Positions 103 to 64,000 are shown, counted from the first letter of the stretch. The stretch: 64,000 nt of DNA from an uncultured bacterium (GCA_937872535.1 CALMTC010000016.1:41081-105080); one strand, 5' to 3'. Made by a program: numbers and translations. The notes: generated from the sequence alone by a model not told the origin.

Positions 103-1542
103 ATGAAAATTTTTTTACTTTTTTTGGTGGTGTTTTTGAATTTAGGAGTAGTATGAGCTCGATCCTATCCTCTCAAACAAGTTTCAAAAAATTCTTATTG
201 TAAACTCTGACATCGAGATTTCTTGGCTGAAGATTGTAAGATTGATTTGCCGATTATTGAAGGTGCTCGTTACCAAGACTATAAAAATAATTTGCTTTAT
301 CGCCGTGTTTATACCGTTTTGAGAGGTGGTACTTATCAGTTTGGCTGGGATGCTGGTTTTTGATCTCATCTGGGAGTTGATATTGCTACTGCTCAGTGAA
401 CACCAGTGACAGCTATTGAGGATGGTGAAGTGATTACTGCAGGATGGGTTCAAGGTCGAGGAAATACTGTTGTTATTAGGCATATTTTTGGTGGGCAGGA
501 AATTTTTTCTGTTTATGCTCATCTCGATGAAGTTTTGGTTTTTGTCTGAGAAAAAGTCTTGGAATGAAAACTTATTGGTAAGGTCTGACAGACTGGCAAT
601 GCGTTTGGTAATCATCTTCATTTTCAAATTGATATTAACCAAAGTGGTAAGCATCCTTACTATTATTCTGAATGTGGTTCTGATGTGATGAGTATCGTTG
701 AGGATGGTAATTGTCAGATTGGGCTTTATACTAATACTCTTGATCCTATTTTTTTCTTGGAAACTACAAAAAACTTTATCTCTGGTAACTGATGAAGTAG
801 TGGTTTACTTTCTGAGATGCTTGATGCTCCTCAGCAAAGTATCGAGTCTTGAGATTTTATTGCTTTTGAAAAACTCCTTAAAGAAGAAGCTGAGATTTTT
901 TTGGAACGCTATGATTTTCAGGTTGAATTTACTGGGACTTTATTGGCTTTTACAGTGATAGATACAAAAACTGCTAAACCATATTTGGGTGTTTTGCCTC
1001 AAGATATTTCTATCGAATTTGATAAAAATATTATTGAAGTTTCTCCATCGGTAATGAAATTTTCTCCTTGAGAGAGAACGTTTTTTGATCTCAAGCAGAA
1101 AAGTGTTTGAAAAACGAGGGTGAAAATCTTGTTTGGTGGTGTTGTTTTTTGGCAAGAAGATATTAGTTTGAAAGGGTATGAGGAAATTATTTCTACTATG
1201 AAAATTCTAAAGATTAAACAAAAAAATCACCTTGGACAAGAAAGTTTATTGGTTGTGTTTCAGGATAGTTTGGGTACTAATCTGGTTCGTAGAGATTATG
1301 GAGCTGGTTTATCTGTTGAACTTTCTGGTAGTTTTTTTTGTGGAAATCTTTTATCTGATTTGAATTTTTTTTCTGCTCGAATGAAACAAAAATGTACTCT
1401 TGATAATCAGAAAAAAAATCTTACGCTTTGATTTGGTGATACGCTATTTGGCTTAGTTCTGATTCCTATTGTGAAAAATGGCCAGAAAAAAAATTTACTG
1501 ATTAGGCGCTGATGAGAAATTATTTTAAACCAGAAATTTTAA
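103..1542 (+). CDS. secreted M23 (LytM-type) metallopeptidase
   Basis: Frame 1 is open from 103 to 1542 when TGA is read as Gly. The N-terminus is signal-like (MKIFLLFLVVFLNLG). M23 motifs: GFGSHLGVDIA (a Gly from TGA 361-363), AQGTPV, VYAHLD, GNHLHFQI. True stop is TAA 1540-1542. Confidence 0.8.
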
Positions 1543-1555
1543 TTTTTAAGATATT

Positions 1556-2425
1556 ATGAGAAAAAATTTTTTGATTGTTTGTTTTTTTTCCTTTTTGTTT
1601 AGCTGATTTTTTTTCTTTTCTGATAGAAGTTTAGCTTTTTTTTCTGGTGATGATGTGCTGATGACTCAGATAGAAAATAATGTTGATTCTTTGTTTTTGA
1701 AAAAAAGAAGCTCAGAATGGACTGAACAACTGCTAGAAAAAGTGAGATTGGTGATGGAGCAGTATCGTGATGAGCCTGCAAAAACTGATCTTTTGGAAAA
1801 AACTTTGGTGTATATCAGACAGAAAACTTTGTATAGAAAAAATACGATTTTGAAACAAAAGAAAAAAGATTTTGTGGAACAGTTGTGATCGGGGATCGTA
1901 ACTAAGAGTAGTTGAATTCCAGAAAATTGTCTGAGAAAGTATAGTTTTTTGAATCAACTTGGAGTGGAGCAAGATTTTCCGACTGCTTTGATAGTGGCTA
2001 CTTGGTGGAAGGAATGATCCTGTAGAATGAGTTTGCCAGCTAATGGTTATGGAGTTTTTCAGATAACTTCACATGACTATGGAACGGGAGATTTTGGGGG
2101 AGCGGGGCTTCGCGAACAAGCTCAGCACTTTATCGATTTTGCTCGTGCTAAAGCTGCTTATTATGATAAAGCTAATTTAGCTAGTGGCTATACTTTAGAG
2201 CTGAACTATGGGCAGTTTGATTATCGTGATCTTCGAAATCATGCTGTGCTTTATAATGCTATTAGTTGAACTGTCAGGAAAGAATTTCTCGATCCTAGAA
2301 GGCAAGATTATGTGATTGGGAACCTTTGGTCTGGAGCTAATGTAACGACTGGTACTATTAGTGATGGTTTGGTGACTAGATTTGTGAAACTTCTTGAGTG
2401 GGAGGTAAACGAGTTTTATGAATAA
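1556..2425 (+). CDS. secreted lytic transglycosylase-like (SLT-like) protein
   Basis: Stitches track ORFs 1655-1888 and 2027-2269 (frame 2) through in-frame TGA. Hydrophobic N-terminus. Motifs WWKEGSC, GYGVFQIT and VLYNAISG resemble the SLT E...GLMQ...AYNAG pattern. Stop is TAA 2423-2425. Confidence 0.5.
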
Positions 2426-2451
2426 ACCAGAAAAATATTTTTTATTATTTT

Positions 2452-3585
2452 ATGTGAAAAATTTTGGTGAAAATAGAAAATAGTGTTTTGAAAGTTATAA
2501 TTGCTGATGTGGCACCCAAAGAGTATGATGATCCAGAATTAGATAAGAGAATGGAAGAACTTGAGAATTTGGCTCATACTTATGGTAGTTTGATAGTGGT
2601 GAAAAAAATTCAGAAGAGAACACAGCCTGATTTTCATACTTATATTGGCTCAGGAAAGCTGGAAGAAATTATCGAAGATATGAAAACTATGGGAGCAACT
2701 GTCTTGATTATCTGAAATATTCTCAAGCCAAAACAAGTATATAATATCAATAAAGAGCTTGAAAAATTTGGTTTTCAGGTACGAGATAGAGTGGATTTGA
2801 TTCTGAAAATTTTTGATAAACATGCTAAAAATACTGAGGCAAAACTTCAGATTGAGCTGGCGTCGATTAAACATATGGGACCCAGAATTTTTGGTATGGG
2901 AATGGAAATGAGTAGGCAGTGAGGATGAAGTACTTTGGCTAGATGACTTGGAGAAACTAATACTGAAATTATGAAAAGACATTTGAAAAATAGAAAAGGA
3001 GAGATAGAACGCAAATTGAAGCAATATGAAAATATGAGACATCTTCATAGAGAATGAAGAGTGAGAAAGGGACTTTTAACGGTTGGAATTGTTGGATACA
3101 CCAATGCTGGAAAATCTTCGCTGATGCGTGCTTTGACTCATAAACAAGTCTTGGTGGAAGATAAACTTTTTGCTACGCTTGGTACTTCGGTGGCAAAAAT
3201 GTATGTTCCAAGTCTCAATTGAAGAGGTTATGAAATTTTGATTAATGATACTATTGGTTTTATGAGGGATTTGCCACCTCAATTGATTCAGGCTTTTAGA
3301 TCAACTCTAGAAGATAGTATTGAAAGCCAGCTTCTATTACATGTCATAGATGCTAGCGATCCTTACTGTGCTGAAAAAATTGTCGTAGTGGATCAAATTC
3401 TGGAAGAGATCGGTGCTGACCAGAAAAAACTTTATGTCTTTAATAAGGTTGATCTTGTTGCTCCAGAAGTATTGGCTGAACTTAAAAAAACCTTTGCTGG
3501 ATTTCAACCGCTGTATATCTCGACTCTGGCTTCTTTTTGACTAGAAGAATTGAAACAAGAAATTGTTAATAAGTTGGGTTTATAG
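2452..3585 (+). CDS. hflX: GTPase HflX
   Basis: Stitches 2464-2715 and 3238-3540 in frame 1. Motifs: MSRQGGGSTLARGLGETNTE, G1 GYTNAGKSSL, INDTIGF, NKVD. The ATG at 2452 is followed by TGA as codon 2. Stop is TAG 3583-3585. Confidence 0.85.
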
Positions 3586-3696: not shown

Positions 3697-6186
3697 ATGA
3701 AAATGGTAAAAAATTTTTATTCTGCTGTTTTTGCTCTTGTTGGAGCGTTTTTAATTAATGGAAGTGTTCATGCTCAGATTGTAGATGAACAGATTCTTGA
3801 TTTGTATAGTGGTGAAGTTTCTCAGCTTCAGAATGCTCAAAAATTGACTGATGACTTTCAATTTGAAAGCTTTTCTTCTTGTCAACAATTTGAAGATGTG
3901 TTTGAGAAATTTGTTAAAGAGAACCGAATTTCTAATAGAAACTATTTTGGTTATTATGGTCGTGGAGGATTTGGTTTGGCGACTGATGATGCGATGCAAA
4001 GTGACCTTCTTGGTGGATTAACCACTTCTGAAGCTGGTAATGTGAAAACTGCTGATCAGGCAGTTTCTCAAAGTGCAGATTTTTCTACTACTAATATTCA
4101 AAAAGAATGAGTAGATGAACCAGAAATTTTGAAAACTGATGGAAAATTTGTTTATTATTTCAATCAGGAAACTCATAAAATTTATGTGATTAATTCTCCA
4201 GTAGATCTTCAGACTCGTGCTATTGATTTGTCAAAGGCTGAGATCAAAAAAATAATTCCACTTCCAGAAAGTTTTTCTCAGGTGCAGCTTTTTGTTTATA
4301 ATGGAAAATTGATCGTGACAGCAACAAGATATCGTTCTGTAACAAGCCAGTCTAATTATCTTGATAATAGTCAGAGATCAGTCGCCTTAGTTTATGATAC
4401 TACTAATTTTGAGAAAGCTAAAGTTCTAAAGCTGACTGATGTGAGTTGATATTTGCTTGATGCTAGAATTACGAATGGTAAACTTTATCTTATTTCAAAG
4501 GTATGAATGGGTCGATGACCTGTTTATGCTTATGAGAATAAAATTGATTCATTCTCTGTGAATGGTGATGTCTTGATGCCAAGATGAGTAGATGTAGTTC
4601 GTACTGCAGATGAAAAACTTTGGAATGTAAAAAGAGATGGTAAACAAGTTGAATATAATTCTCAGACTGCAAAAATTGACTGTAATGATATTTTTTATCT
4701 TTTGCCAACGAAGGAATCCCTTCAAAAAAATCCTGTAGCACTTCAATTTACTGTAGTGTCTGTTATTGATTTGAATGATGTGACTCAGCCAGTAAAAATG
4801 AAGGCATTGTTTGGAGATGCACAACAAATTCATGTTTCTCAGAAAGGACTTTATGTAGTAAACGGATTTTATCATCAACAAGCATTTAGCTGTCCTATAA
4901 ATGCTCGCTGTATGATGCCTTTTTATGCTGGAGGAGAAAATGCTTTGGTTCATAAGTTTCAACTTGGAGCTGGAGTAGATTATGTTGGAAGTACTATTGT
5001 ACCTGGTCAGATTTTGAATCAGTATAGTATGGATGAAGATGAGCAAGGAAATTTTAGAATATTGACTAAACAGCGATATCCAAAACTTTCTACTCATTTG
5101 TTTATTATGGATTCTAGTTTAAAACTTGTTGGTAAATTACTTGGAATTCAACCAGGAGAAGAATTTAAATCTTCTAGATTTATTGGAAAAATGCTTTATT
5201 TGGTAACTTTTAAACAAATAGATCCTTTGTTTGTTGTAGATATCAAAAATGCTATGCAACCAAAAATAGTTGGTGAACTTAAAATACCTGGCTTTAGTAC
5301 TTATTTGCATCCTTATGGAACTGAGAATGCTGGAGTACAATATCTTCTGGGTCTTGGTTACGATACTAAAACTAATCAGCGAGGAGGGACTGTGACTAAT
5401 GGTATTAAACTCGATCTCATAAAAGTGGATTATACAAAAGATGCAACTCCAGAAACTCAATGTGGTAGTTTGGCTGGTATGAGTTGATATCAAGAATGTA
5501 TTAGCTCATTTCATACTGGATTTGTAGAAACGAAACTGGTTCAATCTATGGTAATGGGTGAACAGGGTAGCTGGACTGAAGCTTTAGATAACCCTAGAAC
5601 ATTTGTTTGGAATAATTCTACTAAAGAACTATTGTTGCCAGTCTTATTGGCTAAATCTAATAAGCAAAAAAACTGTAGTATTCAATATGATGACCAATGA
5701 GCTGAAATATCAAGAGATTGCCGAGACTATGATAATCCGACAACTCAATTTGCAGGAGTGAAACTTATTTCTGTTGATGTATCTGCTTGATTTAAAGAAA
5801 AAATGAGTATTGATTATACAGAAATGTTTAAAAAAGCTAACTGAACAAAAACTTTACAAACTCGAGAATTTATTGGTTTGATGAGTAGAGTAGGATATCT
5901 TGGTGATGTTTTTTATACTCTTAATACTAAGTTTGGACATTTTTATTTACCTACTAATTTTGATGGTAAATATGTTCCATTCGTTTCTAATTTAGGTTAT
6001 AATAAACCAGCTCAGTGTAAGTATGAAGAATCAACTGTAAGTCAGACTGATTCTCAGATGGCTTGTGGACAAAGATGGATATATAATAAAGACTCTCAGT
6101 CTTGTGAACAAAAAGAGATTAGCTCAGCTGCTAGTTGTCCTGGTTTTGAGACTGAGTTTGCTTGCCAAGATATGTGTCAAAAATAA
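3697..6186 (+). CDS. secreted beta-propeller domain protein (Beta_propel/COG4880-like)
   Basis: Track ORFs 3613-4110, 4129-4449, 4702-5487 and 5878-6186 are all frame 1 and separated only by TGA. Signal peptide MKMVKNFYSAVFALVGAFLINGSVHA. The family-like block is SSRFIGKMLYLVTFKQIDPLFVVD...GELKIPGFSTYLHPY. The C-terminus is Cys-rich. Confidence 0.65.
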
Positions 6187-7082: not shown

Positions 7083-8237
7083 ATGCAGAAAATATTAGTT
7101 TATTTAACAGTTTTTTTGGATGTCTTGTGAATTGGTATTTTGATACCTGCTTTTCCAGAATTAGTTAAAGTATATGGTGTGAGTAACGATATGATCGCTC
7201 GAGGAGTTACTTTATATGCTTTTTGTACTTTTTTTTCGACTCCTTTACTGGGACAATGGTCTGATCGTTTTGGAAGAAAGCCACTTCTTTTGTTTTGTGT
7301 GGCAGGAACTTTCTTATCTTTTTTAATGCTTCTCTTTACTCATAATTTTTGGCTTTATCTTGTAGCTAGAGTGATTAATGGTTTGACTGGTGGGAATATT
7401 TCTATTTTGCAGTCAATTATTTCTGATATTTCAGCTTCTCCAGAAGAACGTAGAAAAAACTTTGGTTTGATGGGTGCTTTATTTGGTATGTGATTTATTG
7501 TTGGACCTCTTTTGTGATCGCTATTATTAGAATTATGAGTAGAAAGTATTTTTTTCTTTGGAACTTTCTTTTCATTTTTTCAAACTCTGTTGATCGCTTT
7601 TTTTCTCAAAGAAACTCATTATGATAAAACTCATAAACCAATCACCTTTAATTCTTTTTCATTATTTGCTCGTTATTTGGCTAATAAAGATATCGCTTTT
7701 TTGATGTTTAGTTTTTTCCTTTTAGGTTTGGCTGGATTTACTTATCAGTCTGTTTTTACGCTCTTTATGGATCAGCAATTTCAAGTTTCTGGTCAACAGT
7801 CTGGATATATTTTAGCTATGATAGGTGCTATTTTAGCTTTAAATCAAGCTGTTTTGCTATCTCAATTTTGGCTTCGTTTTTTCACTTCTAGGAAACTTAT
7901 TTTTATGCTTCATCTTGCCTTGGTTCCACTTTTTTATTGGCTGAGTTTGGTAACTGATACTTGATTTTTCATTTTCTTATTGGGTGTGGCTGCTTTGTTC
8001 CAATGACTTATTAATCCTTTATATCAAGCTGAAATTCTTGAAAAAATTGATAAGAACTATATTTGAGAACTTAATGGTGTGATGTCTTGACTCGGTTCTA
8101 TAACTATGTTTTTGTGACCAATTTTGTGATCTATTTTGCTTGCTGCAAGAGTTTCTGTTTTTTCTTTGAGTTGATTTTTTGTTCTTGGTAGTTTGATAAT
8201 TTTGCTTTATCATGTGTTTTTTTCTAAGAGATTTTAA
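7083..8237 (+). CDS. MFS transporter (TetA/TCR-like)
   Basis: Stitches 7140-7493 and 7590-7964 in frame 0. MFS signature GQWSDRFGRKPLLL, with about 12 hydrophobic segments. Stop is TAA 8235-8237. Confidence 0.8.
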
Positions 8238-9128: not shown

Positions 9129-11264
9129 TTATAGATCTCTTTTGAGGTTGATTCTTCACTCTCTATCAATTTCTGTTACGATTACTTTGATCGTGTCTCA
9201 GACTTTGAATTCGGTAGCTATGTTGCCTGGAGTGATTGTAGGACCTAGATTTTTGATGTGACAGAGACCTGAAGAAAATTTACTGAGATTTACAAATACA
9301 CCGTATGTTTCTACTCTTGAAATTTTTCCTTCGTATCTTTTGTTGATTTGTGGACCGTTTGCGATTTCCAGAATGAGATCTTTAGCCTTATTGATCATTT
9401 CTTGGTTTGTGGATGCAATGTAGCAAGTTCCATCATCTTCAAAATCGATTTTTACATTCGTTTGAGCAATAATTTCATCAATTGTTTCACCTCATTTTCC
9501 GATTACTATTTTTACTTTTTCTGGTTTGATAGTAATTACTTCGATTTTTGGTGCAAATTCTGAAAGATTTGGTCTGCTTGTTGGAATAGTTTCAAGCATG
9601 AAACTCAGAATTTCAGCTCTAGCAGTATTAGCTTGAGTTATCGTTTTTTTGATGATTTCCATCGTAATTCCTTTGATTTTGATGTCTAACTGGATTGCTG
9701 TGATACCTTTAGTTGTACCAGCTACTTTGAAGTCCATATCTCCAGTGAAGTCTTCAGTTCCCATGATGTCTGTTAAGATTTTATAGTCCAAGATTTTGTG
9801 ATTTTCATCTTCGTGAGTCATTAATCCCATAGCGATTCCACTTACTGGAGAGGTGATTGGAACTCCAGCATCCATCAATGCTAAAGTAGAACCACAGACT
9901 GATCCCATCGAAGTAGAACCTCCTGAACTGAGACATTCTGAAACGACTCTGATAGTGTAAGGGAAAGAATCTTTTGATGGGATCATAAATTCGAGGGCTT
10001 TTTCTGCGAGTCTTCCGTGTCAGATTTCTCTACGATTTGCTCCTCTTGTTCCCATAGCTTCGTTTGTACTGAAAGGTGCCATATTGTAGTGGTGCATATA
10101 TCTTTTTTCTTCGTCTGTTGATTCCATGCTGTCGATGTGTTCTACATCTCAAATTGATCACAGTGTGACTGTTGAGAGAACTTGTGTATCTCCTCTTCGG
10201 AAAAGACCTGAGCCGTGAACTCTTGGTAGTGATCACACTTCACAAAAGAGTGGTCTGATGTCAAAAAGTCATCTATTGTCGATTCTTTTTTCTTCGCTCA
10301 AAACACGATCTCTGATGAATTTTTTGATGGTCTGAAAAACTGCCATCTTTACTTTTGATACAGTATATTCTTCATTTCATTCGTCGTTGATAAGTGGTTT
10401 GCAGATTTGGAGAGCTTCTTTTTCAAATGCGTAGTAAAGATCGTTGAAGGAGACTTTTGTATTCCCTGTCAAAGTCATAAGTTTATCTTCTGGCAGTAGT
10501 CCGTTCATATATTTCAAAAGTGCTTCGCTCGGTTTATTATACTGAATTTCTTTCATTTCAATCTCGTGGAGCTTGATGAAATCTTCTTGAAATTTACAGA
10601 TTGCTTCAATTTCTTTGATTGCTAATTCGAAACCTGCATTGATAATTTCTTCGCTTACTTCTCTGGCATCACACTCGATCATATTTACGAGGTCTGGTTT
10701 TCCAGAAACCAGAAGATTCATCTCTCCTGTTTCAATTTCTTCGAGTGTAGGATTGATAATAAATTCTCCATTTTTTCTTCCAATTCTGACGGCTCCGATA
10801 GGTCCATCAAATGGGATTCCAGCCAATAAAACTGCTAATGAAGACCCAATAATACTAAGAACTCAAAGATCTTGGCTATGGTCTAATGCTAGGGGAGTCT
10901 GAGTAACTACAATATCGTTGATCATTCATTTTGGAAACATAGGTCTCAAAGCTCTATCTGTGAGTCTTGCATTGAGAATTGACTGATCAGATGGTCTTCC
11001 TTCTCTTTTTCTATAAGATCCACCACCGATTTTTCCAGCAGCTGAGTAACTTTCTCTAAAATCTATCATAAGTGGTAAGAAATCTTTGTTTGAATCTGGA
11101 TTTTTTTGCATGACAGCAGTTACGAGAAATACATTGTCTCCAAGCTGAATTGATACGGCTCAGTCTGCTTGAGGAGCTAATTTCCCTGTTCTTGCTTCAA
11201 TCTTTTTACCTTGTCGTTCGAGTATGCTTTTTTTCTCTTCAGGAGTTCTTTTGCTGAATGGCAT
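9129..11264 (-). CDS. pnp: polyribonucleotide nucleotidyltransferase (PNPase)
   Basis: Four track fragments are in one frame, giving 711 aa. Motifs: QADGAV, RREIGHG (Gly from TGA 10020-10022), KH motif GKGGETI (TGA 9492-9494), and an S1 domain at the C-terminus. Stop is TAA 9129-9131. Confidence 0.95.
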
Positions 11265-11454
11265 GTTTTGTTTGGTAGTGATAAAATCGAAGTGATTACA
11301 GATCGTTGATGTGTTAAAGCAACGCTAGCTGCCTTAATGATCAGCGATTTGCTCTCCTTCATTTATGACTATAGTTATTTGTTTCTTAAATGCAAAAATA
11401 TACCAATTTTCTTTCAATATTTGTCAAAAATAATTTTCTGGTGAATATAAAAAA

Positions 11455-11993: not shown

Positions 11994-14333
11994 ATGACCG
12001 ATCCATTTTTCTTGAAAAAAACTGAAAATTCTGCTCAAAACCAGCTTCCTTGAAAGCAAATTTCTTCAGAATCGTCTTCTCAACAACCAATTGTTCAATC
12101 TGTATCTTCTCCAGGTCCTACTTCTCCAGTGAAGATTGATATGAAAGTAAAGCAGTGAAATAGAGTGAGTTTCAGATGATTTTTGATTTGATGTGGAATT
12201 TTTATGATTTTGTTTGTTGGTTTGATAGCTTTTTGACTTTATTATTTTGCCCTGAATCCTCAAAGTGGTGCTCAATTTTGATTGAGTGCTGCTACCATTA
12301 AAAATCTTTTGACACTATTTGCTCTTTTATTTTTTGGCTTCGTTTTTTTTATTGGTTTTTGATATTCGATTGTTAACGGTTATAGACTGATGACAGTTAA
12401 GGAATGAGCAAAAGGCGCTTTTATATTAGGGCTTATTTTTGGTGTTTTTCTTCTTCTTTTTTCTTTGTGAGCAGGCGTACCGGCTTTGACTAGAATATCG
12501 TCTATAGAAGTGGCTGACCCTACTGTGGCTGCTGGTAGAATTTTGTTGCCTTATTATCAATTAGCTGATGGTAGAGAGGTTTGAATTGATGATCCTAATT
12601 TGAAGAAAATTGCACCAGCTATTATCGTTTTTAAGATGGGGAAAAACTCTTTGAGACAGCTGACTAATCAATTTCCTAGCTTACAAACTGCTGTTTTAAA
12701 CTGTGGAAATGGTCAAACTTTTGATCTTGGTGAATCTGATCCTGCTTGTTTTTTTACTGAAAAGAAAGCTTATCCTTTGACATTAGAGGTTGGTTATCTA
12801 GATGCTAATAGTCGTTCTGTTAAACAAACTCTAGATTTGGGACCACTTAGCTTTGATGCTCAGCTTGATGTTTCGTTGGCAAATGGAGTTCTCTCGCTCA
12901 ATGATAGTAAGTCTGAATTGGTGGCTGGTTTCAATCCTTCTAAAGTGCTTATCAGTGCTCAAAGACTTTTTTCTGATTTACAATTGGCTACCATCTTGGT
13001 AGATTGGGATACTAATGGTGATTTACAGTCTGATTTCACTAATGAAGCTTCTGTACAAGCTGTTTTTAATCAACCAGGACTTCAATTTATTACTTACTCT
13101 TTTCCGGCGCTTGGTAATTATCGTTATGTTCTACCTCTGAGAATCAAACAGTCTGAAAGTCCAGTTTGTTCCATAGATGTTAAAGAGTGAGATCTTAATA
13201 AATATCAATTTTCTACTCTTTTTGAAGATAGTGGCGCTGTTATTAAAGAGTTTTCGTTTGAAATAATCAATGCTAGCAATGGTAAGTCAGTTGCGAGTCA
13301 AAAAACTCGTTTGTCTACTTTTGACTATTCTTTTAAGGATCTTGGTAGTTATTTTGTAAGAGTGAGTTTTCTGACGGACACAGCTAAACAATGAGGCTGT
13401 GAAAGCCAACCTTTTGATGTTGGTAGCAGCTCATTTAATTTAATCTATCGTCTTTTGTATAGAGCTCCACAATCGTCTGTATTTCAAAAATTTTCTTTAT
13501 CTGGTCGTTATAATGCTACAGGAGACTATTATGTTATTCCTGAACTTCCTACCACACTTCAATTTGTCATTGATAAGATTTTGCCAGAAAATTCTACTGA
13601 CAGTGTCAAAGTTTTTCTTAATGATCAACAACTTTTGTCATCAGATGGAAAAACTTTTGAATTTGTCATTAGTAAGGATTCTATAGAACCTTATCGTCTT
13701 GTAACTCAGTTTGTCGATCAGCAGGGTAATACTTTTGATAAAAATATTGTTGTTTCTGTGAAACAACAACCAATTGTTGGTATTATAAAAGTTGATCCTA
13801 GTTATGTTGGAACTGATCCATTTGAGGTTCATTTTGATGCGTCAAGTACTAGATTGGCTGATGAAACTGATGAAATCGTGTTTTTCACTCGAAATTTTGG
13901 TGATGGTGAGGTAGCTAAAAATGTGAGTAAGTGACAAATTTCTCATACTTATGTTTTTGATAATCTTAAAGAATCTGGCAGTTATCATCCTGAAGTGACT
14001 ATAAAAACCAGAAAATGATTAACTGGAAGCTTTTTTACTGAACAACCTATTTCAGTTAAAAGGGCTGAGAGACCTGTGAAAATTCTTATGCAATCTCATC
14101 CAGCTCAGGTGGCTTTAGCTGGTGAAAGAGTCCAGTTTGGTCTTGAAGTGAATGGGCCTATTAGCACAATCATTTGGAACTTTTGAGATGGTCAATCTCA
14201 AGAATGTGAGGGTAGAAGCTGTATTGAAATGACTAAGATTTATGATCAACCTGGTACTTATACTATTAAAGTGACCGTAAAATTTGAAGATAGTCCGTCT
14301 GTGGAACAAGTTGTGAAATTACAGGTAAGATAG
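11994..14333 (+). CDS. membrane-anchored surface protein with PKD domains
   Basis: Stitches 12600-13190 and 13455-13934 in frame 0, giving 779 aa. There are N-terminal TM segments. PKD signatures are (W)NFGDGE...SHTY (13890-) and IIWNFGDGQS...YDQPGTYTIKVTV. Stop is TAG 14331-14333. Confidence 0.7.
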
Positions 14334-16617: not shown

Positions 16618-16710
16618 TCATCTTCCTTGAGAAGAAATTTTTGGCAGAATAGTATTTTCACTTCATGAAATTTTTATTTCTGCTGTCATCGTGTCGAGAG
16701 AATGGATTAC

Positions 16711-18561: not shown

Positions 18562-18689
18562 TGGGATGCAGTAAAAATAAAGCTTTGCTTGATTATAAAA
18601 TAAAATACAAAAAAAAGCAAATTTCTATCACTTTTAGTGTAAAAAATGCTTTTAGAGTTGGCTTTATCTATTGAATTTTTGATAAATTT

Positions 18690-40014: not shown

Positions 40015-40512
40015 TTATAAAGATTTTATGAAATTTTCTTTTACAGTGTCTTTTGTCTTCATATTTTTGATGATATTGTAGCTTTCTCTTATGAGTTCTC
40101 TCATGTCTTGATAGTAAAGAAGACTAAGAACTTCAGTGATAGTTGCTCGTTTGTACATTCAAAGATAGCCTTCAGCGTCTTGGATTTTAACTGTTGTCGG
40201 TGAGCCTGTGTATTCTATTAAAAAATAAGTAACATCTTTATTTACCATTCCTTTCTGATTTGTTGGGTTTCTAAGCTCTGTTTTCCCAATTTTTTGTTTG
40301 ATAAACATTTGATTTATAGGTATTCCTGTTTCTTCTGAAACTTCTCTGAGCGCAGCTACTTGACTTTCTTCTCCAGCTTGAATTTTACCTTTTGGAGCTA
40401 CTCGTTCGATTTTTTTGGAAAGTGCGTATCTTTTTATCAAAAGGTATCTCGGTTCATTATCTGATGATATGTAATAGACGATTCCTCACGCACTTTGAAT
40501 GATGTCTGCCAT
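40015..40512 (-). CDS. NUDIX hydrolase
   Basis: ATG 40512. Track ORF 40159-40440 is extended both ways through TGA. The Nudix box is PKGKIQAGEESQVAALREVSEETGI. Stop is TAA 40015-40017. Confidence 0.8.
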
Positions 40513-41917: not shown

Positions 41918-43930
41918 ATGAGTCGTCAAAAAACTTCCCATCCGATATGAAAGGTTTCACACTATTTTTCTTCTTTTTTCCTTTTTTTGATTTTAATTAC
42001 TGGAAGCGTACTGGCTCAGGAGGTGACAGTAGTAAATTACCAAATACTTCCTTGATGATCTGGAAGTGTTGTAACTGGAGGTTCTCAATCTAGTCAGACA
42101 AATTCTGTGTCGGGAGTGATGTTGAGTTGATATCAAATTAATCCAATTTCTTCGCTTGTTAGCTCGAGCGGAAGTGCCAGCAGCGGGCAAGTTTTTTCTG
42201 GTGTAAGTAATCAGATTATTACTGGTTTACAGATTTCTGGAGCTGTGACTACTGGAGTGATAAACTCGCCTGTCGTGGTAGCAAGCTGAAGTTTTGTCGC
42301 TCCTCAAATTTCTAGTTCTGGTGTTGATACTTTGGTTACTGGGGCTCCGATCTGAGAATCAAAAAGTTTTCTTGAAGATGAAGAGTTTGTAAGTGCTATT
42401 AGCTGGATGCACCGCAACTGACTTACTCAGTATACAAATGTCGAAGACTATAGACCTTTTGAATTGCTCACGAGAGAGCAGTCTGCTAAAATGATAGGTC
42501 AGCTTTTTAAAGCTTTAAAGATTGGTTCTGGAGAAAATAATCTTTGTGAATTTTCTGATTTGGCTGGATCAGATCAATCTCTTGTAGAACATATTTATTT
42601 TGTTTGTAAGATTGGTGTGTTTCGTGGAGCAGAGAATAAATTTTTCCCTTTGCAAACCTTAACAAAAGCTCAAGTTACTGCTGTTTTAGTGAGAATGTTT
42701 GAAGGAAAACTTTCTTCAGAAACTGGTATGCCACGATGGCAACTTTATTTCCAGAAAGCACAACGCATAGGTCTTACTAAAGAAACTAGTCTGTTTACTT
42801 ATGATAAACTGATGACTAGATATGAAATGGCTCTTTTTGTTTATAGATTTAAGAGTATTATTGAAAATCAAGGTTTGAAAAAGAATGCTGATGAAGCTAT
42901 TCAGCAGATAAATTCTATGCAACAGGCTGATTCTCAAGGATCTGATTTACAAAGTGTTTGAACTTATATTTCTCAAAATAACTCATTTTCTACCCTTTTG
43001 AACTGAATAGCATTTTTGGATGAACCTGAATTTTCTGAAGCACTTTTTTGGCTTAAGAAAGAATGATTTACTCAGTTTAGCGAACCTGCTAGTTTTAGAC
43101 CATTTGATGTGCTGACCAGAGAAGAATCTGCTAAATTTGTATGAGATTTTTACCTGAAAAGTTTTCAACAAACTGGCTCTGTTCAGGTACCAGAAGAATG
43201 TTTTTTTAAAGATATAGAAACGGCAAATAGTAATCTTAGAAATCATATTTTGACTGTTTGTAGTGTTGGGATTTTGAAATGAAAAAACTGACTTTTTTCT
43301 CCTACTAAAAGCGTAACAAAAGCTGATTTTATTGCAATGCTGATGAGGATGTTTCAGTGAAAATCTCTTGATGAAACTGTTTCTCCTCGATGGAAAAATT
43401 ATTTTCTGGAGGCTCAAAAAATGGGTATCGTCTCGTCTAGTGATCTGATAACTTTTGAACAACCTATTACAAGATACGAAGTGGCTCTTTTGCTTTATAG
43501 ACTCTATGCCAAGAGTAAACTCTTGAACAATTTGAACTCTTCAAAAATAGAAGGACAACTTATTTCTCTCGTTTCTGGTTCGGTTTCTACTGGTGTGGAT
43601 GGCTTGAGACAGGCTAAAATTTTTATTGATGCAAGTTTGTTGGCTGGGCAAGATAGTGAACTGATGTATATTGACTTTTTCTGACAGACAGTGAAGGTCA
43701 TTAAGCAGTCTATTGAAAAATATGTAAATAATCAGAATTATGCTTGGTTTGGAGAGCTGTATGATATTGCTAATGACCAAAAAATTGGAACTTTGAGTTT
43801 TTTGGTGAGTAATGATGTTGTTTTGGAGGGGACAATGAGATTTACTTCTGTGACTTGATTATTTTATACGATTGCTAAAAATCAGATTGATGAAACTTTT
43901 TATTATCTATTTGAAAAAACTGTTCGCTAA
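41918..43930 (+). CDS. secreted protein with four SLH-like repeats
   Basis: ATG 41918 in frame 2 with a signal-like FLFLILITGSVLA. It includes track ORFs 42464-42961 and 43421-43684. The SLH-like repeat pattern is F.D......I..M...G......F.P...LTREQ/ES.AK. Stop is TAA 43928-43930. Confidence 0.65.
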
Positions 43931-45579: not shown

Positions 45580-46605
45580 CTAAAAACTTTTTATGAATCT
45601 GAGATCTCCGTTTGTGAAAAGTCTGATGTCTTTGATTCAGTAAGTAATAGCTACTAATCTATTGAGTCAGATTCAAAAAGCGTAACCTGAATATATAGAA
45701 GAATCTACTCCAGCTTGTTCTAGAACATTTGGATGGATCATTCCAGCTCCTAAAATTTCTATTCGACCTGTTTGTTTACAAAGTGGACAACCTTTTTGTT
45801 GGCAGATTGGGCAGCTAGCATCAATTTCAAATCCTGGTTCTACAAATGGGAAAAATGCTGGTCTCATTCTAATTGTGATGTCAGCTTGGAAAATTGCTGA
45901 TAAAACTTTTGGCATAAGATCTTTGAAATGAGCAATACTGATGTCGCGGTCTATGACGACTCATTCTACTTGCCAGAAAACTGTGTCGTGAGAAGCATCA
46001 GTATTTTCATATCTGTATACTTTTCCTGGAACGATAAACTTACAAGGCACTCATTGTTTTTTTATGAGTTCATTTTGCATGGCTGAAGTGTGTGTTCTCA
46101 TAATCCAGTTTTCTCAGTCGTTTGCTTGTTGGTGTAGATAAAAAGTATCGTGCATTTCGGTAGCAGGATGAGTAGCTGGAATATTTACTGAGTAGAAATT
46201 TTCAAATTTACTTACCATGTCGTGACCATACTCTATATGGAAGCCCATTCACTGAAAAATTTCTTCTATTTTTCTTCTGGCTTGGTTGAGTAGAGTGTAG
46301 TGACCTTCAGGTGTTTTGATTCCATCGACTGATGAATCAATTATTTCTTTATTTAAAAGTTCATTTATTTTTTCTGCTTTTAGTTTATTTTTTTTCTCTG
46401 TGAGTAATCACTCTATAAAATTTTTTCGTTCTGAAAGTTCCTGTCCTTTTGCTTTTTTTTCTTCTGGAGAAAGTGCTCAAAGGTTTTTGAATTCTTTGCT
46501 AATTGGTCATTCTTTTCCTAAATATTTATTTTGGATTTGGTCAACTTCATTTTCTGAAGTAGCTGCTAGAATTTCTGCAGATATTTGCTCTTTTGATAGT
46601 CACAT
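45580..46605 (-). CDS. pheS: phenylalanyl-tRNA synthetase alpha subunit
   Basis: ATG 46605 with TGA as codon 2, giving 341 aa. Motifs: HPATEMHDTFY, RTHTSAMQ, FPFVEPGFEID, CKQTG(CGA)IEILGAGMIHPNVL, GYAFGIG. Stop is TAG 45580-45582. Confidence 0.9.
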
Positions 46606-51072: not shown

Positions 51073-54000
51073 TTGAATGATAAGAAAAAAACTGTGGAAA
51101 AAAAAGTAGTTACTAGGAAGAAAAGCACTTCCAAGAAATCTCTTGTCGAGAACCAGAATGAAAATATTTTGGAAAAAAAAGATAGTGGATTTTTAATGGG
51201 AAAAAATTTTATTCCTGATTTTGGTGAACAGGTTTTGACTTTTCGTGGTGTAAAAACTCATAATTTGAGAAATATCGATATTGATCTGCCTAAAAATAAA
51301 ATCATTACGGTAACTTGAGTTTCTGGTTCTGGTAAATCTTCTTTTGCTTTTGATACGGTCTATAAAGAGGGGCAGTATAGATATATCGAATCGCTTTCTT
51401 CGTATCTGAGACAGTTTTTTAATCTCTGAGAGAGACCTGATATTGACTATAGCTCTGGTTTGTCGCCCGCTATTGCTATTGAGCAAAATAAAAGAGTCTG
51501 AAATGCTAGAAGTACAGTCTGAACGCTTACTGAGATCGATGATTATCTGAGATTACTTTTTGCAAAACTTGGAGATATCTATAGCTATGGCTCTGGAAAA
51601 CCAATTAAAGCTCAAACTATTGACCAAATTATTGATGATATGAAGCACTTATATCTTGGGAAAAAAATTTATTTGGTTCAACTTGTTGGGCATTTTGATG
51701 ATAGTAGAGAATTTTTGAAGTTCGTGAAAAAAAATAGAATGAAAGTGGAACAATGAGAAGGTTTCACTAGATATTTGATGGTTATGAATGATAAAAAAAT
51801 TCCTTCATCAGATGAAATTTTGCTTGAAAAAGATCAAGAGGATACTATGATGGGAAATTTCTGATCAAATATTAAAATTTCTGGTTCTCAAAAAATAGCT
51901 CAAAAAACTGAATCTGAGTCTTCGAAAAGTGTGGAAAAACAGACTTCAACTATTGAGTATTTCTACTTGGAATCTCCACATGTTCCTGAGAAATTTTTTC
52001 CAGTACAAGTATATGGAATTTTTGATCGTGTGACAGTAGAAGAGCAAAAGATACCTAGACTAAAGGAAGATATTGTGAAAATTCTTGGTATGTCTAAGAA
52101 GTTTGGTGTGTATTGTTCTCTTGAAGATAAACAACCAAGTGATAGCGCAGTTTCAAAAGCTATGGATAAGGATGTTTATAATTTGGCTGGGCAGGTAAAA
52201 TGGTATACTGATAAAAATTATTGTCCTGATTTTGATATTACTTATCCTGATTTTGCTCCACATCATTTTTCTCCTAATAGAGCTGAGTGAGCTTGTCCTG
52301 TTTGTCATGGCCTTGGAGAAAATCTGAATGTCGATTTTGATAGAATTCTCGATCCTCATGCTCCTTTTATGAAAGCTGTTTTACCTTGGCGTGACTCTGT
52401 GCTTGGTCAAACTATTCTGAAAAAGTTGGCTCAAAAATACTCTATGAACGAGGAAAAACTTTGGAAAGATCAACCAGATTGGTTTAAAGAAATTGTGCTT
52501 CAGTGAGACAATGAAATTCTCAGAATTGGAGTGGCGGCAAAAAATGTGAATATGACTTATAAGGGGATTCAAGATGTCTTGACTACTCAGTACAATAAAT
52601 GATTGCTGACTGTAGATTTTCAGGCTATGTTTGAATTGAAACCATGTACTGAATGTCATGGTGCGAAGCTGAGAAAAGAGTCACTTTATGTGTTTTTGTA
52701 CAGTGGAAAACCAGAAAAAAAACCTTTGAATATAAAAGTAGATGATATGAGTAAAATGTTTACTCTTTTTGATTTGCAAAAAATTCCTGTGCAACAGCTG
52801 GTGGAAGTGCTTGTTGAATATCAGAAAAATACTGATAAACCTTCTGAACTCGTGAATAGAATTATGAATCCGTTGATCGATAGAACGAAGACGATTATTT
52901 CTCTAGGGCTGGGGCATCTTGGTCTGAATAGGCAAGTGGACACGCTTTCTGGATGAGAAATTCAGAGACTGAGACTGGCGAAGCAGCTTGGAAATAAATT
53001 GACGGGAATTATTTATGTTCTTGATGAACCAACTATTGGCCTAGATACTGAAGAAATTGTTCGTACTATTGAAGCAATTAAAACTCTCAAAGCCATGTGA
53101 AACACTATTATTGTGGTCGAACATAATGATGCTTTTATCAAAGCTAGTGACTGGGTCGTCGAGATTGGTCCTGGAGCTTGAGATTTTGGTGGTCATCTGA
53201 TTTTTAATGGTCCTTATGAAGAATTTTTGAAGATAGATAGTCTGACTTCTCAGTATGTGAGAGGCGAGAAAAAAATTCAGGTCGATCTGGATCATACTCC
53301 GACAGCGAAAAAAGTTTCTATTAAAAAAGCTAGTCAACATAATCTTAAATGAGTTGATGTGGAAATAAATCTTGGTGCTTTTACTATTATTACTTGACCT
53401 TCTGGAGCTGGTAAAACGACCCTGATGTATGGTACTTTATTCAAATTTTTGGATGAAAAACAAAAATTTATTCAATCTTATATAAGACTTCAATTATTAA
53501 AGAAGGGAATGTCTTGGTCTGATATTATAAAAGCTCCAGTAATGCAAAAAGAGGAGTATGAACATCTTCAAAGTCTTGCTTTACAGGAATTTCATAAAAG
53601 TATCGGAGTAGAAACGATCAAAGGCCATGAGGAAATTGATAATGTGATCTATATCGATCAGTCGAGTATCTGAAAAACTCCAAGAAGCTGCCCAGCTACA
53701 TTTATCGGAGTTTTTGATCATATGAGAAAAATCTATGCTGGCGTACCAGAGGCTCAGTTTATGGGTTTTTGAGCTGGGCATTTTAGTTTTAATTCTAGTA
53801 AAGGAAGCTGTACAGAGTGTGAAGGATACTGATATAAAAAAGTGGAACTTCAGTTTTTACCAGATACTTATGTTCCTTGTCCGCTTTGTCATGGAAAAAG
53901 ATATAAGCCAGAAATTTTGTCTGTTCAGCGACATGGAAAAAATATTTCTGAGGTATTGGGAATGTATGTCAGAGATGCTTTGGAATTTTTCAAGGATATT

Positions 54001-54395: not shown

Positions 54396-55076
54396 ATGTG
54401 AATAAATTCTGCTGAAGTTCGTATGGAGGAAAGTTGGAAAAAATGCTTAAAATCTGAATTTTCTAAAGAATATTTTGGGCAGATAAAAAATTTTTTATTG
54501 GAAGAGCAAAAAAATGGATTTGAAGTTTTTCCACCTCGTTCCCAAATATTTTATGCTTTTGAGAAAACTCCTCTTGAGAAAGTGAGAGTAGTAATTCTCT
54601 GACAAGATCCTTATCATTGAATAGGACAGGCTCATGGGCTTAGTTTTTCTGTGCAGAAATGAATCACTTTGCCTCCTTCACTGAAAAATATTTTCAAGGA
54701 AATTGCTGAGGAGTTTGGTGGTGAGCCGTCTAACGATGGAGATCTGACTCGCTGGGCTGATCAGGGAGTTTTTTTGCTCAATGCGATTTTGACGGTGAGA
54801 AAAAATCAGCCGGCCAGTCATAGCGAAATAGGTCGACAGTATTTTACTGATGCGGTGATTAAAAAACTGAGTGATGAAAGGACTGGAGTGATTTTTTTGT
54901 TGTGGGGAAAATTTGCTCAGTCTAAAGAAAGTCTGATAGATAAAACTCGTCATACGGTCTTGGTGGCACCTCATCCGTCTCCTTTTTCTGCTCATTCTGG
55001 GTTTTTTGGCTGTGGACATTTTAAAAAGGTAAATGACATTCTCAAAGAAAGAGGTGAAAAAGAAATAATCTGGTAA
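54396..55076 (+). CDS. ung: uracil-DNA glycosylase (family 1)
   Basis: Motifs: GQDPYHGIGQAHGLSFSV (two Gly from TGA), LLNAILTV, IG(CGA)QYFTDAVI, HPSPFSA. The alternative start is ATG 54423. Confidence 0.9.
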
Positions 55077-55106: not shown

Positions 55107-55835
55107 ATGCAACTTTTTTTGACTGACTGGGTAGAAAAAAATAATGAAATTTTTATTTCTGATGATCGTGTTTCTCATCAGATGAAAACTGTCTTGAGAG
55201 CTAAGGAGTGAACAGAATTTTTTGTACAAAAAAGCAGCGATGAAAGTGCTTTAAGAATGAAAGTCAGACTAAAAAATTTTGATGATAAGAAAACCATTAT
55301 TGCTGGTATTGTTTCTCAAGAGGGACAAAAAAATGAGATAAAATCACTGGAAATGTATGTGGCGATGCCAAATAAGTTTGATAAATGTGAACTGATTGTT
55401 CAAAAACTGGCTGAGATTTGAGTGTCAAAAATTGTTTTTTGGGTGGCTGAGAGATCTCAGATTCGTGAACTGAGTGAGCAAAAACTTGAGAGACTAGAAA
55501 AAATAGCTGTGGAAGCAGTAGAGCAGTCTCGAGGCTGGCAGATCCCTCGTCTTAGTTTTGAAAAAAATTTTTCTTCTGATGGTTTCAAAAAAACTGATTT
55601 TTTTTGTGTTTTTGATGCCGGTGAAAAAAGTGTGAATCCTTTTGATCTTTGAAAAATTCTTTGAGATTCAGAAAAAATTGTTTGAGTGGTAGGGCCAGAG
55701 GGAGGTCTTTCTCCAAAAGATTATGAGCTTTTTGGCTGAAAAGAAAGGGTAGTGAGCTTGGGAGGAACTATCTTGAGGATGGAAACTGCGGCTATCGTTG
55801 GCTGACGATTGCTGAGAAATCTGAGTCGCTGATAG
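55107..55835 (+). CDS. rsmE: 16S rRNA m3U1498 methyltransferase RsmE
   Basis: Frame 0 includes track ORF 55422-55652. Motifs: VEQSxGW, VVGPEGGLSPKDYE, SLGGTILRMETAA. It ends ...CGC TGA TAG at 55827-55835. Confidence 0.75.
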
Positions 55836-60792: not shown

Positions 60793-60944
60793 AATTTTTT
60801 TATTTCCCTAGATGGTAGTAAACAGTACTCTAAAATCAAGTTTTTTATCGAAATTTCTGACTATTATAACTTAAAAAGTTTTTATTCTGGAAAATGCTTA
60901 TTTCTGCTTGAGAAATATTCTCTTTTTCGTAGAAAAAAGGTATT

Positions 60945-60985
60945 TCCCTTCGATATACTCAGGGACCGATGATGGAGTTTTTTGG
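60945..60985 (+). promoter_or_regulatory. conserved hairpin element, copy B
   Basis: TCCCT-TCGATATACTC-AGGGA followed by CCGATGATGGAG and TTTTTTGG. It lies about 70 nt upstream of ATG 61054. Confidence 0.5.
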
Positions 60986-61053
60986 TTGGACTGTAACTCT
61001 GCGGTAATGGTTGTTGTTTTTCTTGTTTCGTTGTTTACTTAAACAAAAAATAA

Positions 61054-64000
61054 ATGCAGATAAAAAAATTTTTTATAAAAATATTTTCTTTTTTATTTGT
61101 TGCTTTTTTGTGATTGGGTGGTTTTTTGATGGCTGATTTTCAGGAGTTTCAGAGACAGCTGGGGAGTATGGGGCTAGTGAGTGAAGATTTTATGAAGAAG
61201 CCAGCGATTTCGAGATACGAGTTGTCGAGATTGCTCAATGCTGTGGAGTGTAAAGACTGTGTAAATCCAGATAAGAGTATGATAGATAGCTATAGTCAGC
61301 AGTTTTGGAATCAGTTTGTGAAGTTACCAGGAAAAGATTTTTCAGATATTTTTTATAGACAGGCGGTTTATAATCAGCAAAGTTATTTTTACTGTGTGGC
61401 TTATGTCGGTGATAATCAGTATATGAGATGATATCCTTTGGCGACGAGTCCACTGTGTGCTGGGCAGTTTTGTGGTGTCTTGAATACGACAAAGGCTGAA
61501 TTTCTTCAAGTAGTTTTCAATATTTTGGTAGAGTATGTAGCTAGCCAATATCGTACAAATTGGAAAACAGTGCAGGATCGAGTAGGGTCCCTTGGAATGA
61601 CTGGCTATGCTTTTAGAAACTTGGATTTGACTGATTTTTCTACGATTTCAAGTTGACTGGCTCAGTGTGGGAATAATGAATGTCTTCTTCGTAATGGTCA
61701 GGAATTGAAAACTTATGCGAAGTATTGTATGTTTAATCTTCAGAAATGTGGCTTTCAGGAATTTTGATCTATAAAACAAGGTTTTTGGCCAGTGGCAGAG
61801 TTAAATATTTTGTATAATCAAAATGTGGTTCCGTTGGAAGAGGCTTTGAAAACTGATATTGGGAAGCCTGTTAGCTCGCAAGAGGCTGTTCAGACTTTTT
61901 ATAGACTCTATCAAAAAGTTCAGTGCCAGTTCAATAATGATTATGATTGTGATGGAATTGATAACCCTAATGATAACTGTCCTGCCTTTTATAATCCTCG
62001 TCAGCTTGATACTGATAAAGATGGATATGGAGATGTTTGTGATGGTGTGTGAACTTGAGGATTTATCTGATGAGATGGAGATATTGATGGTGATGGGGTA
62101 GAAAATCCTCTTTGAATTGTTGATGCAAATGGAAATATTATTGTCTGATTGTTGACATGAGGAACTGATAATTGTATTTTTGTTGCTAATCCTGATCAAC
62201 TTGATGCTGATGGAAATTGAATCTGAGATGCTTGTGAACAAAAAAAAATAGTCTATTGAATGCATATTGTTTTGGAAAAAATTGAATGATCTGCTCCAGT
62301 TTCTGTCAGAATGCGTGTCGAAAATTCTGATAATCATACTGTAGAGCGAGATTTTGGTGATGGTTCTCAAGGAGTGGGTAAAGTGGTTAATCATATTTTT
62401 GAAAAACCCTGACTTTTTATTATAAAAGCTCAATGAACTTGAGTTTATCAGCCTGATATTGCTCAGGCTACTCTCGTTGTTGGGCAATCAAAAAAACAGG
62501 CTTATGCGTTACAAGCTTTGGCTACACCTCTTGTGGCTCAAATACCTTTTAGAGCCAATTTGACTTATAAAACAATGTGAGAATTTTCTCAAATACAATG
62601 GAATTTACCATCTGGCATTAAAACTGCACCAATAAATACTTCTCTTACGGAACAAATTATTTCTCAGGATTCTCAAACTTTAGTAGCTCAAGGGTTGGTA
62701 GCTGGTGAAATAAAAGCTGTGAGTCAGATCGTAGTGGCTGGTGGTTCTTACTGACAATGAGCTTCTTTATCTGTAGATGCTTTGGAGTGAGATTTACTGA
62801 AAAAATTTTCTTTTAAAACTACTGTGGCTGGTTTTAGTTTGGACGATGTTAATTCTGTTCAGTGGGATTTTTGAGATGGGCAAATACTTACGAATAGATC
62901 TCTTTCTATGATCAAGCAGTATTCTGTTTATGGATCAAAAATTGTCACTCAAAAAATTTCTCTTACTGATGGTCGTATTTTGGAAACTAAACTTACTGTT
63001 TATATTTGAAAAAAGAATGAAGATGTTTCTTCTTCTATTCATTTAACTGCAGAGAAACTTGTTGTTCCATACTGAGAAAATATTTCATTAAAACTTTCTC
63101 TTACTTCAGTTCCACTTAATTCTATTAGTACAATAGTTTGGAATTTCTGAGATGGTCAAACTAAAGTGCGTAATTCTGCTGTTTCATCACAGCTTTCTGA
63201 ATCACATTTTTATAATTGACCAGGAATTTTTCATCCTACTGTTTCTGTTTACTGACCAGCTTGTCTTTTTTATAGTCAACAACTTACAGTAGAAGTTAAA
63301 AAACCTTTTGATTGTTATGAAGCGTATTTGAATTGATCGTTAAAAAATTTCAAGTGTGATATGGATAAAGATGGAATGCCTGATATTTGTGATGAAGATA
63401 TCGATGGTGATGGCAGAAATAATATTTTATGACTTATTCTTTTTGAAAATCAGGATTGTTCAATTAATTTTTGATGAGATACTAGAAGTCAAACAAATGC
63501 AGAAAATAAATTTAATGTAGATTTTTATGCTTTGAGAGATTATTATTCTCATGGGAGTTGTTTGATGGATAATTGTCCTTTGAAAACTAATCCTAATCAG
63601 ATTGATTCTAATTTGAATGGTGTTGGAGATGTTTGTGATGACTGATTTTTCTCAATAACATGAGGTTTTTGAAGTGGTGATTGACAGGGCAGTAGTAATT
63701 CTGGTGGAAATGTTAATAATACTGATTTTTGTCTTGATGGAAATAATTGTTTCCAAGATGCTGATGGAGATTGAATACTTGATTCTGATGATGCTTGTCC
63801 TACAGTACCAGAAAATTATAATGGAGTAGAGGATCTTGATGGTTGTCCTGAAATTTGATTGCAGGATGCGTGTTGAGTATCTCAGGCTTCTTGTCCTGCT
63901 GGACAGACTTGTATTAGCGTTGTAAATTGTAATCAGTGTCCTTGTCAATATGCTGACTTTGTGGGAAGCTTAATTCCTGGAGATACTGTTAGAGCTGGAC
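61054..64000 (+). CDS. large secreted protein with thrombospondin type-3 (Ca-binding) repeats and PKD domains (3' end outside window)
   Basis: ATG 61054 follows an in-frame TAA. Frame 1 was verified line by line to the window end. The N-terminus is signal-like. TSP3-like motifs: DCDGIDNPNDNCP...DTDKDGYGDVCD, DMDKDGMPDICDEDIDGDG, NQIDSNLNGVGDVCDD. There are three PKD WxFGDG motifs. Confidence 0.7.

Follow-up and report, generated by a model that had tools for sequence, protein, structure and literature searches.

The 64-kb window analysed here (the whole 64,000-nucleotide stretch from an uncultured bacterium, GCA_937872535.1, CALMTC010000016.1:41081-105080) encodes a number of well-known enzymes, among them UNG, PheS, PNPase, UvrA, HflX, RsmE and a NUDIX protein, together with an MFS transporter, two paralogous M23 peptidases, proteins with PKD repeats, a beta-propeller protein and several very large proteins. 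This work concerns the codon CGA in these genes. We conclude that CGA is very probably read, at least predominantly, as tryptophan (Trp) on top of the reading of UGA as glycine (Gly), with CGU, CGC, AGA and AGG remaining arginine (Arg) codons and a host belonging to the Absconditabacterales. That CGA means Trp and not Arg had been proposed from the sequence alone (the sequence-only reading), and three independent lines of evidence agree in supporting it: the residues that homologs have at the columns occupied by CGA, the exchange of CGA and TGG in the DNA of relatives, and the balance of Trp content between the strands.

The window has a GC content of 32.7%, and 43 non-overlapping open reading frames (ORFs) cover about 93% of it under code 25. 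Treating TGA as a sense codon raises the ORF content from 11.2k to 38.6k residues (ORFs of at least 100 amino acids, aa). TGA columns of PNPase are Gly in 65% of the residues of standard-code homologs, compared with 72-73% for GGT/GGA columns, and a run of 20 Gly residues in the gene g32 (50029-50088) is written with GGA, GGT and TGA; the reading of UGA as Gly (code 25) is thereby confirmed. A search for Rfam families in the window found none.

Starting from a window protein that has neither TGA nor CGA codons (44981-45454, minus strand), we reached matching contigs in two NCBI metagenome-assembled genomes (MAGs), GCA_035329245.1 and GCA_035329205.1, and in a Logan assembly, all 100% identical to the window, as well as a 147.7-kb ENA contig that is 99.9% identical. 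Apart from being 18 nt (six Gly codons) shorter at the poly-Gly run of g32, the ENA contig is identical to the window; the population is thus polymorphic for the length of this tandem repeat. Proteins of the identical records are labelled 'Candidatus Absconditabacterales bacterium' by NCBI, and the closest PNPases in the database are labelled SR1 or Gracilibacteria. Judged by the NCBI labels of these identical proteins and contigs, the window is a segment of a Candidatus Absconditabacterales (SR1) genome, which is where the sequence-only reading had provisionally placed it.

That reading was built on eight CGA codons, in UNG, PheS, PNPase, the MFS transporter, two PKD repeats and the two M23 peptidases. 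All eight lie where it had put them and are in frame under code 25. It had correctly assigned the PheS codon to the minus strand, and had left unsaid that the PNPase codon (11214-11216) and one of the M23 codons (35711-35713) are on the minus strand too. In the homolog alignments CGA was masked as X, so that no residue was favoured, and 79 loci of non-relatives from a GTDB scan with PheS were reused as standard-code references. The same scan returned only one relative, at 53% identity and with no synteny; none of the loci that a metagenome scan with PNPase returned was a relative, all being references at 45% identity or less. The CGA codons of the conserved enzymes and the transporter are listed here, with residues in one-letter code and L numbers for loci of relatives.

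54834..54836, plus strand: UNG CGA-147, in GxQYFTD; W in 5/5 PDB UNGs and 2/2 genome loci.
45763..45765, minus strand: PheS CGA-281, in TG-x-IEILG; W in 79/79 standard-code genomes and 5/5 PDB homologs; TGG in the relative L001.
46426..46428, minus strand: PheS CGA-60, N-terminal coiled coil; L33 I16 V15 F11 A4 and no R or K in 79 genomes; CTT in L001.
40402..40404, minus strand: NUDIX CGA-37, in x-VAPKG; W in the Ap4A-hydrolase homolog 3u53.
40147..40149, minus strand: NUDIX CGA-122; W in 3u53 and 4ilq.
53929..53931, plus strand: UvrA CGA-959; Tyr in 5/5 PDB UvrA proteins, Phe in L076.
2782..2784, plus strand: HflX CGA-111; I or M in PDB HflX proteins, CGA kept in L089.
7200..7202, plus strand: MFS transporter CGA-40; Leu in NorA, TTG in the ortholog L089, a hydrophobic column.
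55530..55532, plus strand: RsmE CGA-142, ambiguous; aligned to K, Y, L, G and G in PDB homologs.

The UNG and PheS-281 codons therefore stand at Trp positions, as had been claimed for them. In the transporter the codon is in frame and in a hydrophobic column; the aromatic 'H-Y/F-G' position that had been suggested for it was not shown by the alignment. Compared column by column with the standard-code consensus, window CGA aligns to W, aromatic or hydrophobic residues, and in none of the columns is Arg or Lys the main residue. Both RsmE columns (RsmE-142 and RsmE-234, the latter variable with Q and S) are uninformative. RsmE also carries the segment EQS-CGA-GGC-TGG (55530-55538), in which Gly (GGC) occupies a column that is Arg in 5/5 PDB RsmE homologs. 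As controls, CGT columns of the window are R in 55/56 and 57/57 standard-code PNPases, and AGA columns are 63-72% R in standard-code homologs, with K next.

The second line of evidence comes from the DNA of diverged relatives. We found these with three protein searches (the M23 peptidase, the beta-propeller protein and PNPase), compared the DNA of the contigs, and pooled the codon pairs of well-aligned ortholog columns from L001, L085-L087, L089, L090 and L153-L155. The 32 partners of window CGA comprise 12 TGG, 12 CGA and one CGG, no other Arg codon and no Lys codon; the remainder are two Phe/Tyr, two Leu/Ile/Val/Met (LIVM) and three other codons. Window TGG is paired with TGG (43), CGA (7) and CGG (3), again with no other Arg codon, whereas the codons AGA, AGG, CGT and CGC taken together are paired with other Arg codons 282 times and with TGG once. 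The difference between CGA and the other Arg codons in pairing with TGG or Arg is highly significant (Fisher's exact p = 1.8e-20). CGA and TGG thus replace each other in both directions, as can be seen within the beta-propeller protein g03, where L089 has TGG and L090 has CGA at position 460, and the reverse holds at position 562. A further locus outside the pooled count, L156, supplies two more TGG partners for window CGA, both in PNPase.

The two PNPase codons deserve separate treatment:

11214..11216, minus strand: PNPase CGA-17; W in 4/4 closest PDB homologs, TGG in L153 and L156.
10197..10199, minus strand: PNPase CGA-356, in GSGLF-x-RGDTQ; TGG in L153, L154 and L156, CGA in L155.

PNPase-17 had been put forward as a Trp position of the family. 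This holds for the closest structures and for the relatives, and 120 in-clade database homologs have W97 and R21 at this column; in a distant high-GC panel it is G or D, so that Trp is found in only part of the family. Outside the clade PNPase-356 is Q54/T3/K1 (T in PDB), and we considered it as a counter-example. We dropped it as such, since the column is W111/R9 with no G among 120 in-clade homologs and the codon is TGG in relatives; the TGG in L153, L154 and L156 removes what was the only apparent counter-example. PNPase-356 is a clade-specific Trp of SR1/Absconditabacteria within the motif GSGLF-x-RG(D/E)TQ, which adjoins the active-site region.

The sites in the faster-evolving proteins are as follows:

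35711..35713, minus strand: M23 peptidase g21 CGA-141; TGG in L087, CGA in L085, Y/W in distant homologs, TGG in the paralog g00.
35810..35812, minus strand: g21 CGA-108; homolog column RRRRR followed by 12 W, CGA in L085, TGG in g00.
35834..35836, minus strand: g21 CGA-100; TGG in L087, CGA in L085 and L086.
35942..35944, minus strand: g21 CGA-64; TGG in L087, CGG in L086, CGA in L085.
36092..36094, minus strand: g21 CGA-14; TGG in L085.
457..459, plus strand: M23 peptidase g00 CGA-119, the Y of GYGN; TAT (Tyr) in L087 and in the paralog g21.
214..216, plus strand: g00 CGA-38; CGA in the L085 homolog; L087 has TGG at the equivalent g21-64 column.
13890..13892, plus strand: PKD repeat of g09, FFT-x-NFGDG; TGG in the orthologs L153 and L155, Pfam PKD, sister repeat TGG.
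62347..62349, plus strand: PKD repeat of g42, VE-x-DFGDG; inside a Pfam PKD_4 match, two sister repeats TGG.
4513..4515, plus strand: beta-propeller g03 CGA-273; homologs W79 Y21 F5 R4 G4.
5074..5076, plus strand: g03 CGA-460; TGG in L089, CGA in L090, homologs W77 R34 and no G.
5380..5382, plus strand: g03 CGA-562; CGA in L089, TGG in L090, homologs Y46 R37 W29.
5722..5724, plus strand: g03 CGA-676; homologs W39 R28 Y26, TCT in L089.
42734..42736, plus strand: g28 CGA-273, in P-x-W; CGA kept in L090, motif again at 43388-43390.
26521..26523, plus strand: g16 CGA-836; CGA kept in L085.

The M23 and PKD codons cited in the sequence-only reading accordingly hold up at the level of DNA or of domain structure: 35711 is TGG in one relative and CGA in another, 457 is the Tyr of GYGN, 13890 is TGG in two orthologs and 62347 lies within a recognized PKD_4 domain, with sister PKD repeats using TGG. 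In another PKD repeat of g09 a window TGG corresponds to CGG in one of the two orthologs. A PDB search with the PKD fragment gave a spurious match only, and Pfam, the internal repeats and ortholog DNA were used instead. The internal repeats of g28 (42734-42739 and 43388-43393) both contain Pro-CGA-TGG, a predicted Trp-Trp pair written with two different codons.

In terms of database proteins, homologs at window CGA positions of the M23 peptidase, g03 and PNPase have only mixtures of W, R and aromatic residues, while conserved AGA/CGT columns are 97-100% R within the clade. CGT columns are 100% R in in-clade PNPases, conserved AGA columns of g03 homologs are R in 114-120/120, and there is one W among 720 cells in the conserved-Arg columns of g03. 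CGU, CGC, AGA and AGG remain Arg codons in this organism. Conserved Arg motifs also avoid CGA, as had been noted from the sequence: DRFGRK is written with CGT and AGA, SRSLA with CGT, and RNRIIAGL with AGA and AGG.

The protein entries have to be read with care. In 111/119 beta-propeller homologs (P0034-P0152) W appears in Gly-diagnostic columns, which is the mark of translation with code 4, where TGA is Trp. Code 4 instead of code 25 was used for the majority of the clade's public protein entries (P0034-P0152 for the beta-propeller, P0154-P0272 for PNPase). Because many clade homologs were translated in this way, a 'W' in the database may be a TGA. We therefore did not accept the W counts of protein entries as they stand, and a W signal at a CGC codon of the window (g03-404) proved to be a code-4 artefact. 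Unlike columns of TGA mistranslation, CGA columns hold essentially no G, and the DNA of relatives itself shows TGG. The NCBI annotation puts R at the CGA codons (P0001, P0033, P0153).

The third line of evidence is codon usage, which we counted in a cleaned gene set of 19,258 codons. The gene g08 (11390-11830, plus strand, 147 aa, with three CGA and one CGG) overlaps a minus-strand ORF (11375-11701) just upstream of pnp, which by its position is a putative rpsO, and g08 is probably spurious; the first ~190 codons of the g32 ORF (46825-50973) look non-coding. For this reason g08 and the doubtful N-terminus of g32 were removed and their CGA and CGG codons were not counted; three short ORFs were removed as well. 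The cleaned set has 110 TGG, 56 CGA, 95 CGT, 27 CGC, 377 AGA, 37 AGG and no CGG, which agrees with the earlier remark that conserved genes lack in-frame CGG. Per 10,000 codons this corresponds to AGA 196, UGG 57, CGT 49, CGA 29, CGC 14 and CGG 0, CGA being half as frequent as TGG.

The two codons are distributed very differently between strands, with 97 TGG and 28 CGA in plus-strand genes and 14 TGG and 29 CGA in minus-strand genes (Fisher p = 1.8e-7; Mann-Whitney p = 0.009 for the per-gene difference). If TGG is the only Trp codon, Trp makes up 0.71% of plus-strand but 0.24% of minus-strand genes (p = 3.6e-5), whereas with TGG and CGA together the values are 0.91% and 0.75% (p = 0.31); for the gene set as a whole, inclusion of CGA takes Trp from 0.57% to 0.86%. 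All eight 8-kb bins have a plus strand rich in G and T, with a GC skew of 0.07-0.24. The same skew between plus- and minus-strand genes is seen for CGT (92 vs 3), AGG (36 vs 2) and GGG (97 vs 12). The strand-dependent choice is visible, for example, when the minus-strand stretches 15763-23848 and 34892-36133 are set against the plus-strand stretch 24016-29706. The interval 15763-29706 encodes four very large proteins rich in Lys, Glu and Asn (K/E/N-rich; 933, 549, 1039 and 1897 aa). Conservation in relatives was seen only for the largest, which has 64% identity in L085 and no Pfam match listed on related contigs; the three on the minus strand have 16 CGA vs 5 TGG.

Several observations weigh against reading CGA as Trp. 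Of the 56 CGA codons, about 34 come without comparative data, and many of these belong to K/E/N-rich proteins that evolve fast. The M23 peptidase g00 has AGA (322-324) where its paralog g21 (35834-35836) and orthologs have CGA or TGG; this is the sole pairing of an Arg codon with CGA, and it was seen twice (L085 and L086), both times at that site. The Gly beside RsmE CGA-142 means either that a conserved Arg has been lost or that the local alignment has slid by one residue. ARAGORN found no tRNA gene, and hence no decoder, in the 64-kb window or in ~200 kb of related loci. The literature that we searched held no experimental confirmation of the reassignment, and the published work stresses that ambiguous decoding stays possible short of experiments (PMC8629427), the sequence allowing a minority insertion of Arg. 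Such ambiguity, an intermediate stage of reassignment in which CGA is mostly Trp with appreciable Arg inserted through a competing tRNA or a near-cognate tRNA-Arg, would also fit the few sites that tolerate either residue (RsmE-142, and AGA in g00 against CGA in g21), and wobble at U34 might in theory extend to CGU/CGC. We nevertheless consider it improbable. CGA occupies the invariant Trp of the essential enzymes PheS and UNG, a place where an Arg share of 10-50% would do harm, it is the majority Trp codon of minus-strand genes, which would be hard to sustain under heavy ambiguity, and the pooled ortholog columns show no exchange with Arg codons; the first two of these points are what speaks against even minority insertion of Arg.

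That CGA is an ordinary Arg codon, its Trp and aromatic matches arising by chance or by lineage-specific substitution, would accord with the NCBI annotation, with RsmE-142 adjoining a conserved Arg and with the Q/T/K found at PNPase-356 outside the clade. However, PNPase-356 is TGG in relatives, and an ordinary Arg codon would have to explain why no in-clade partner of CGA is an Arg or Lys codon (0/32) while 12 are TGG, why Arg should stand at PheS-281, why no standard-code column is R/K-dominated, and how minus-strand genes manage with so little Trp, all of which makes it very improbable. A different residue, namely Tyr, Phe or Leu, is suggested by the Y/F columns of UvrA and the M23 GYGN motif and by the L/I/V/M columns of PheS-60, HflX and the MFS transporter, but it is hard to reconcile with the invariant W of PheS-281, UNG-147 and the NUDIX columns, with 12 TGG partners against two F/Y and two LIVM, and with PNPase columns that are W/R only; we give it hardly any weight. 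An artefact, whether from misplaced frames, ORFs that are not genes, errors of sequencing or assembly, or database entries translated with the wrong code, seems just as remote. Some CGA and CGG codons did belong to spurious ORFs (g08, opposite the putative rpsO, and the g32 N-terminus) and many database W may be TGA, yet the same sequence occurs in four independent assemblies, the key evidence is TGG read in DNA, the PDB and genome references come from standard-code organisms, and the CGA columns are essentially without G.

The reassignment of CGA to Trp is already known, as it was published clade-wide in 2021, and the window represents a further member of the clade rather than a new kind of code. 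The screen with Codetta to which the sequence-only reading had pointed does exist: CGA and CGG to Trp, on top of UGA = Gly, were predicted for the whole Absconditabacteria clade (Shulgina & Eddy 2021, eLife 10:e71402, PMC8629427), and the published table infers CGA = Trp in every Absconditabacterales genome (PMC8629427). A study in NAR 2026 (gkag327) treats the CGA/CGG to Trp reassignment as established, and a 2026 preprint still describes bacterial sense-codon changes as 'computationally predicted', its tool considering tables 11, 4 and 25 only. The window resembles the published code in several respects: it bears the same clade label, reads UGA as Gly, has CGA where Trp is conserved, keeps CGU/CGC/AGR for Arg, and combines a low GC content (0.33; published 0.26-0.38, PMC8629427) with rare CGN codons and a dominant AGA. 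The genomes in the published table have a GC content of 0.29-0.38, with CGA 13-41, UGG 35-75, CGG about 1-6 (one genome 24) and AGA 231-321 per 10,000 codons (PMC8629427); the CGA and UGG of the window fall inside these ranges and its AGA slightly below the listed one. It differs in having no CGG and in CGA being the majority Trp codon of minus-strand genes, and the MAG was not part of the 2021 data set. NCBI translation table 25 (SR1/Gracilibacteria) shares UGA = Gly but keeps CGA = Arg. In Anaerococcus and the Onthovivens/RFN20 Bacilli, covered by the same 2021 screen, a codon of the Arg CGN box has likewise been captured for Trp in low-GC genomes; there only CGG changed, whereas in the window the changed codon is CGA. 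CGA stays Arg in the Anaerococcus/RFN20 lineages because tRNA-Arg(ICG) reads CGU/C/A.

In terms of mechanism, we rely on the literature, as the decoding tRNA was found neither in the window nor in related loci. The source contig beyond the window (~6.8 kb downstream and 1.9 kb upstream) has no tRNA. The secE-nusG-rplK-rplA locus often carries tRNA-Trp; that of a relative has no tRNA, and its 165-nt gap is a terminator-like hairpin. Absconditabacterales genomes were reported to lack tRNA(ACG) and TadA, to use tRNA-Arg(GCG) for CGY, and to have tRNA(UCG) and tRNA(CCG) with the Trp identity elements G73 and no A20, low GC having made CGA and CGG rare prior to capture (Shulgina & Eddy 2021, PMC8629427). 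By analogy, low GC would have driven CGA and CGG to rarity in this lineage before their capture for Trp. With tRNA-Arg(ACG) and inosine absent, CGA would not be tied to CGU/CGC; a tRNA-Arg(GCG) would read CGU/CGC, and a tRNA with anticodon UCG and Trp identity elements (G73, no A20), charged by TrpRS, would read CGA. In this genome CGA would then have rebounded to its present frequency, with CGG left unused. CGG, of which the window itself offers no instance, is paired in relatives three times with window TGG and once with window CGA. Tentatively, and with somewhat less than even confidence, we suggest that CGA is the preferred Trp codon of genes on the C/A-rich strand, the choice being made by replication-strand mutational skew, and that CGG has gone out of use and perhaps lost its assignment, as might happen if tRNA(CCG) disappeared.

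CGA to Trp is one of the earliest predicted cases of a bacterial sense codon changing its meaning, and another case in the Absconditabacterales will not surprise specialists; what the present comparison adds is an independent confirmation through DNA-level exchange of CGA, TGG and CGG in relatives rather than through counting of profile-HMM (hidden Markov model) columns. Since table 25 and the gene callers now in use read CGA as Arg, all public proteins of this organism have W written as R at ~0.3% of residues, including the invariant Trp of UNG and PheS. Together with the reading of TGA as Trp, this error distorts homology searches, alignments and structure prediction for the clade. How far codon capture has gone in this lineage is shown by its use of TGG or CGA according to strand and by its lack of CGG; if the suggested pattern is true genome-wide, it would represent a late, 'rebounded' stage in which the two CGR codons have met different fates.

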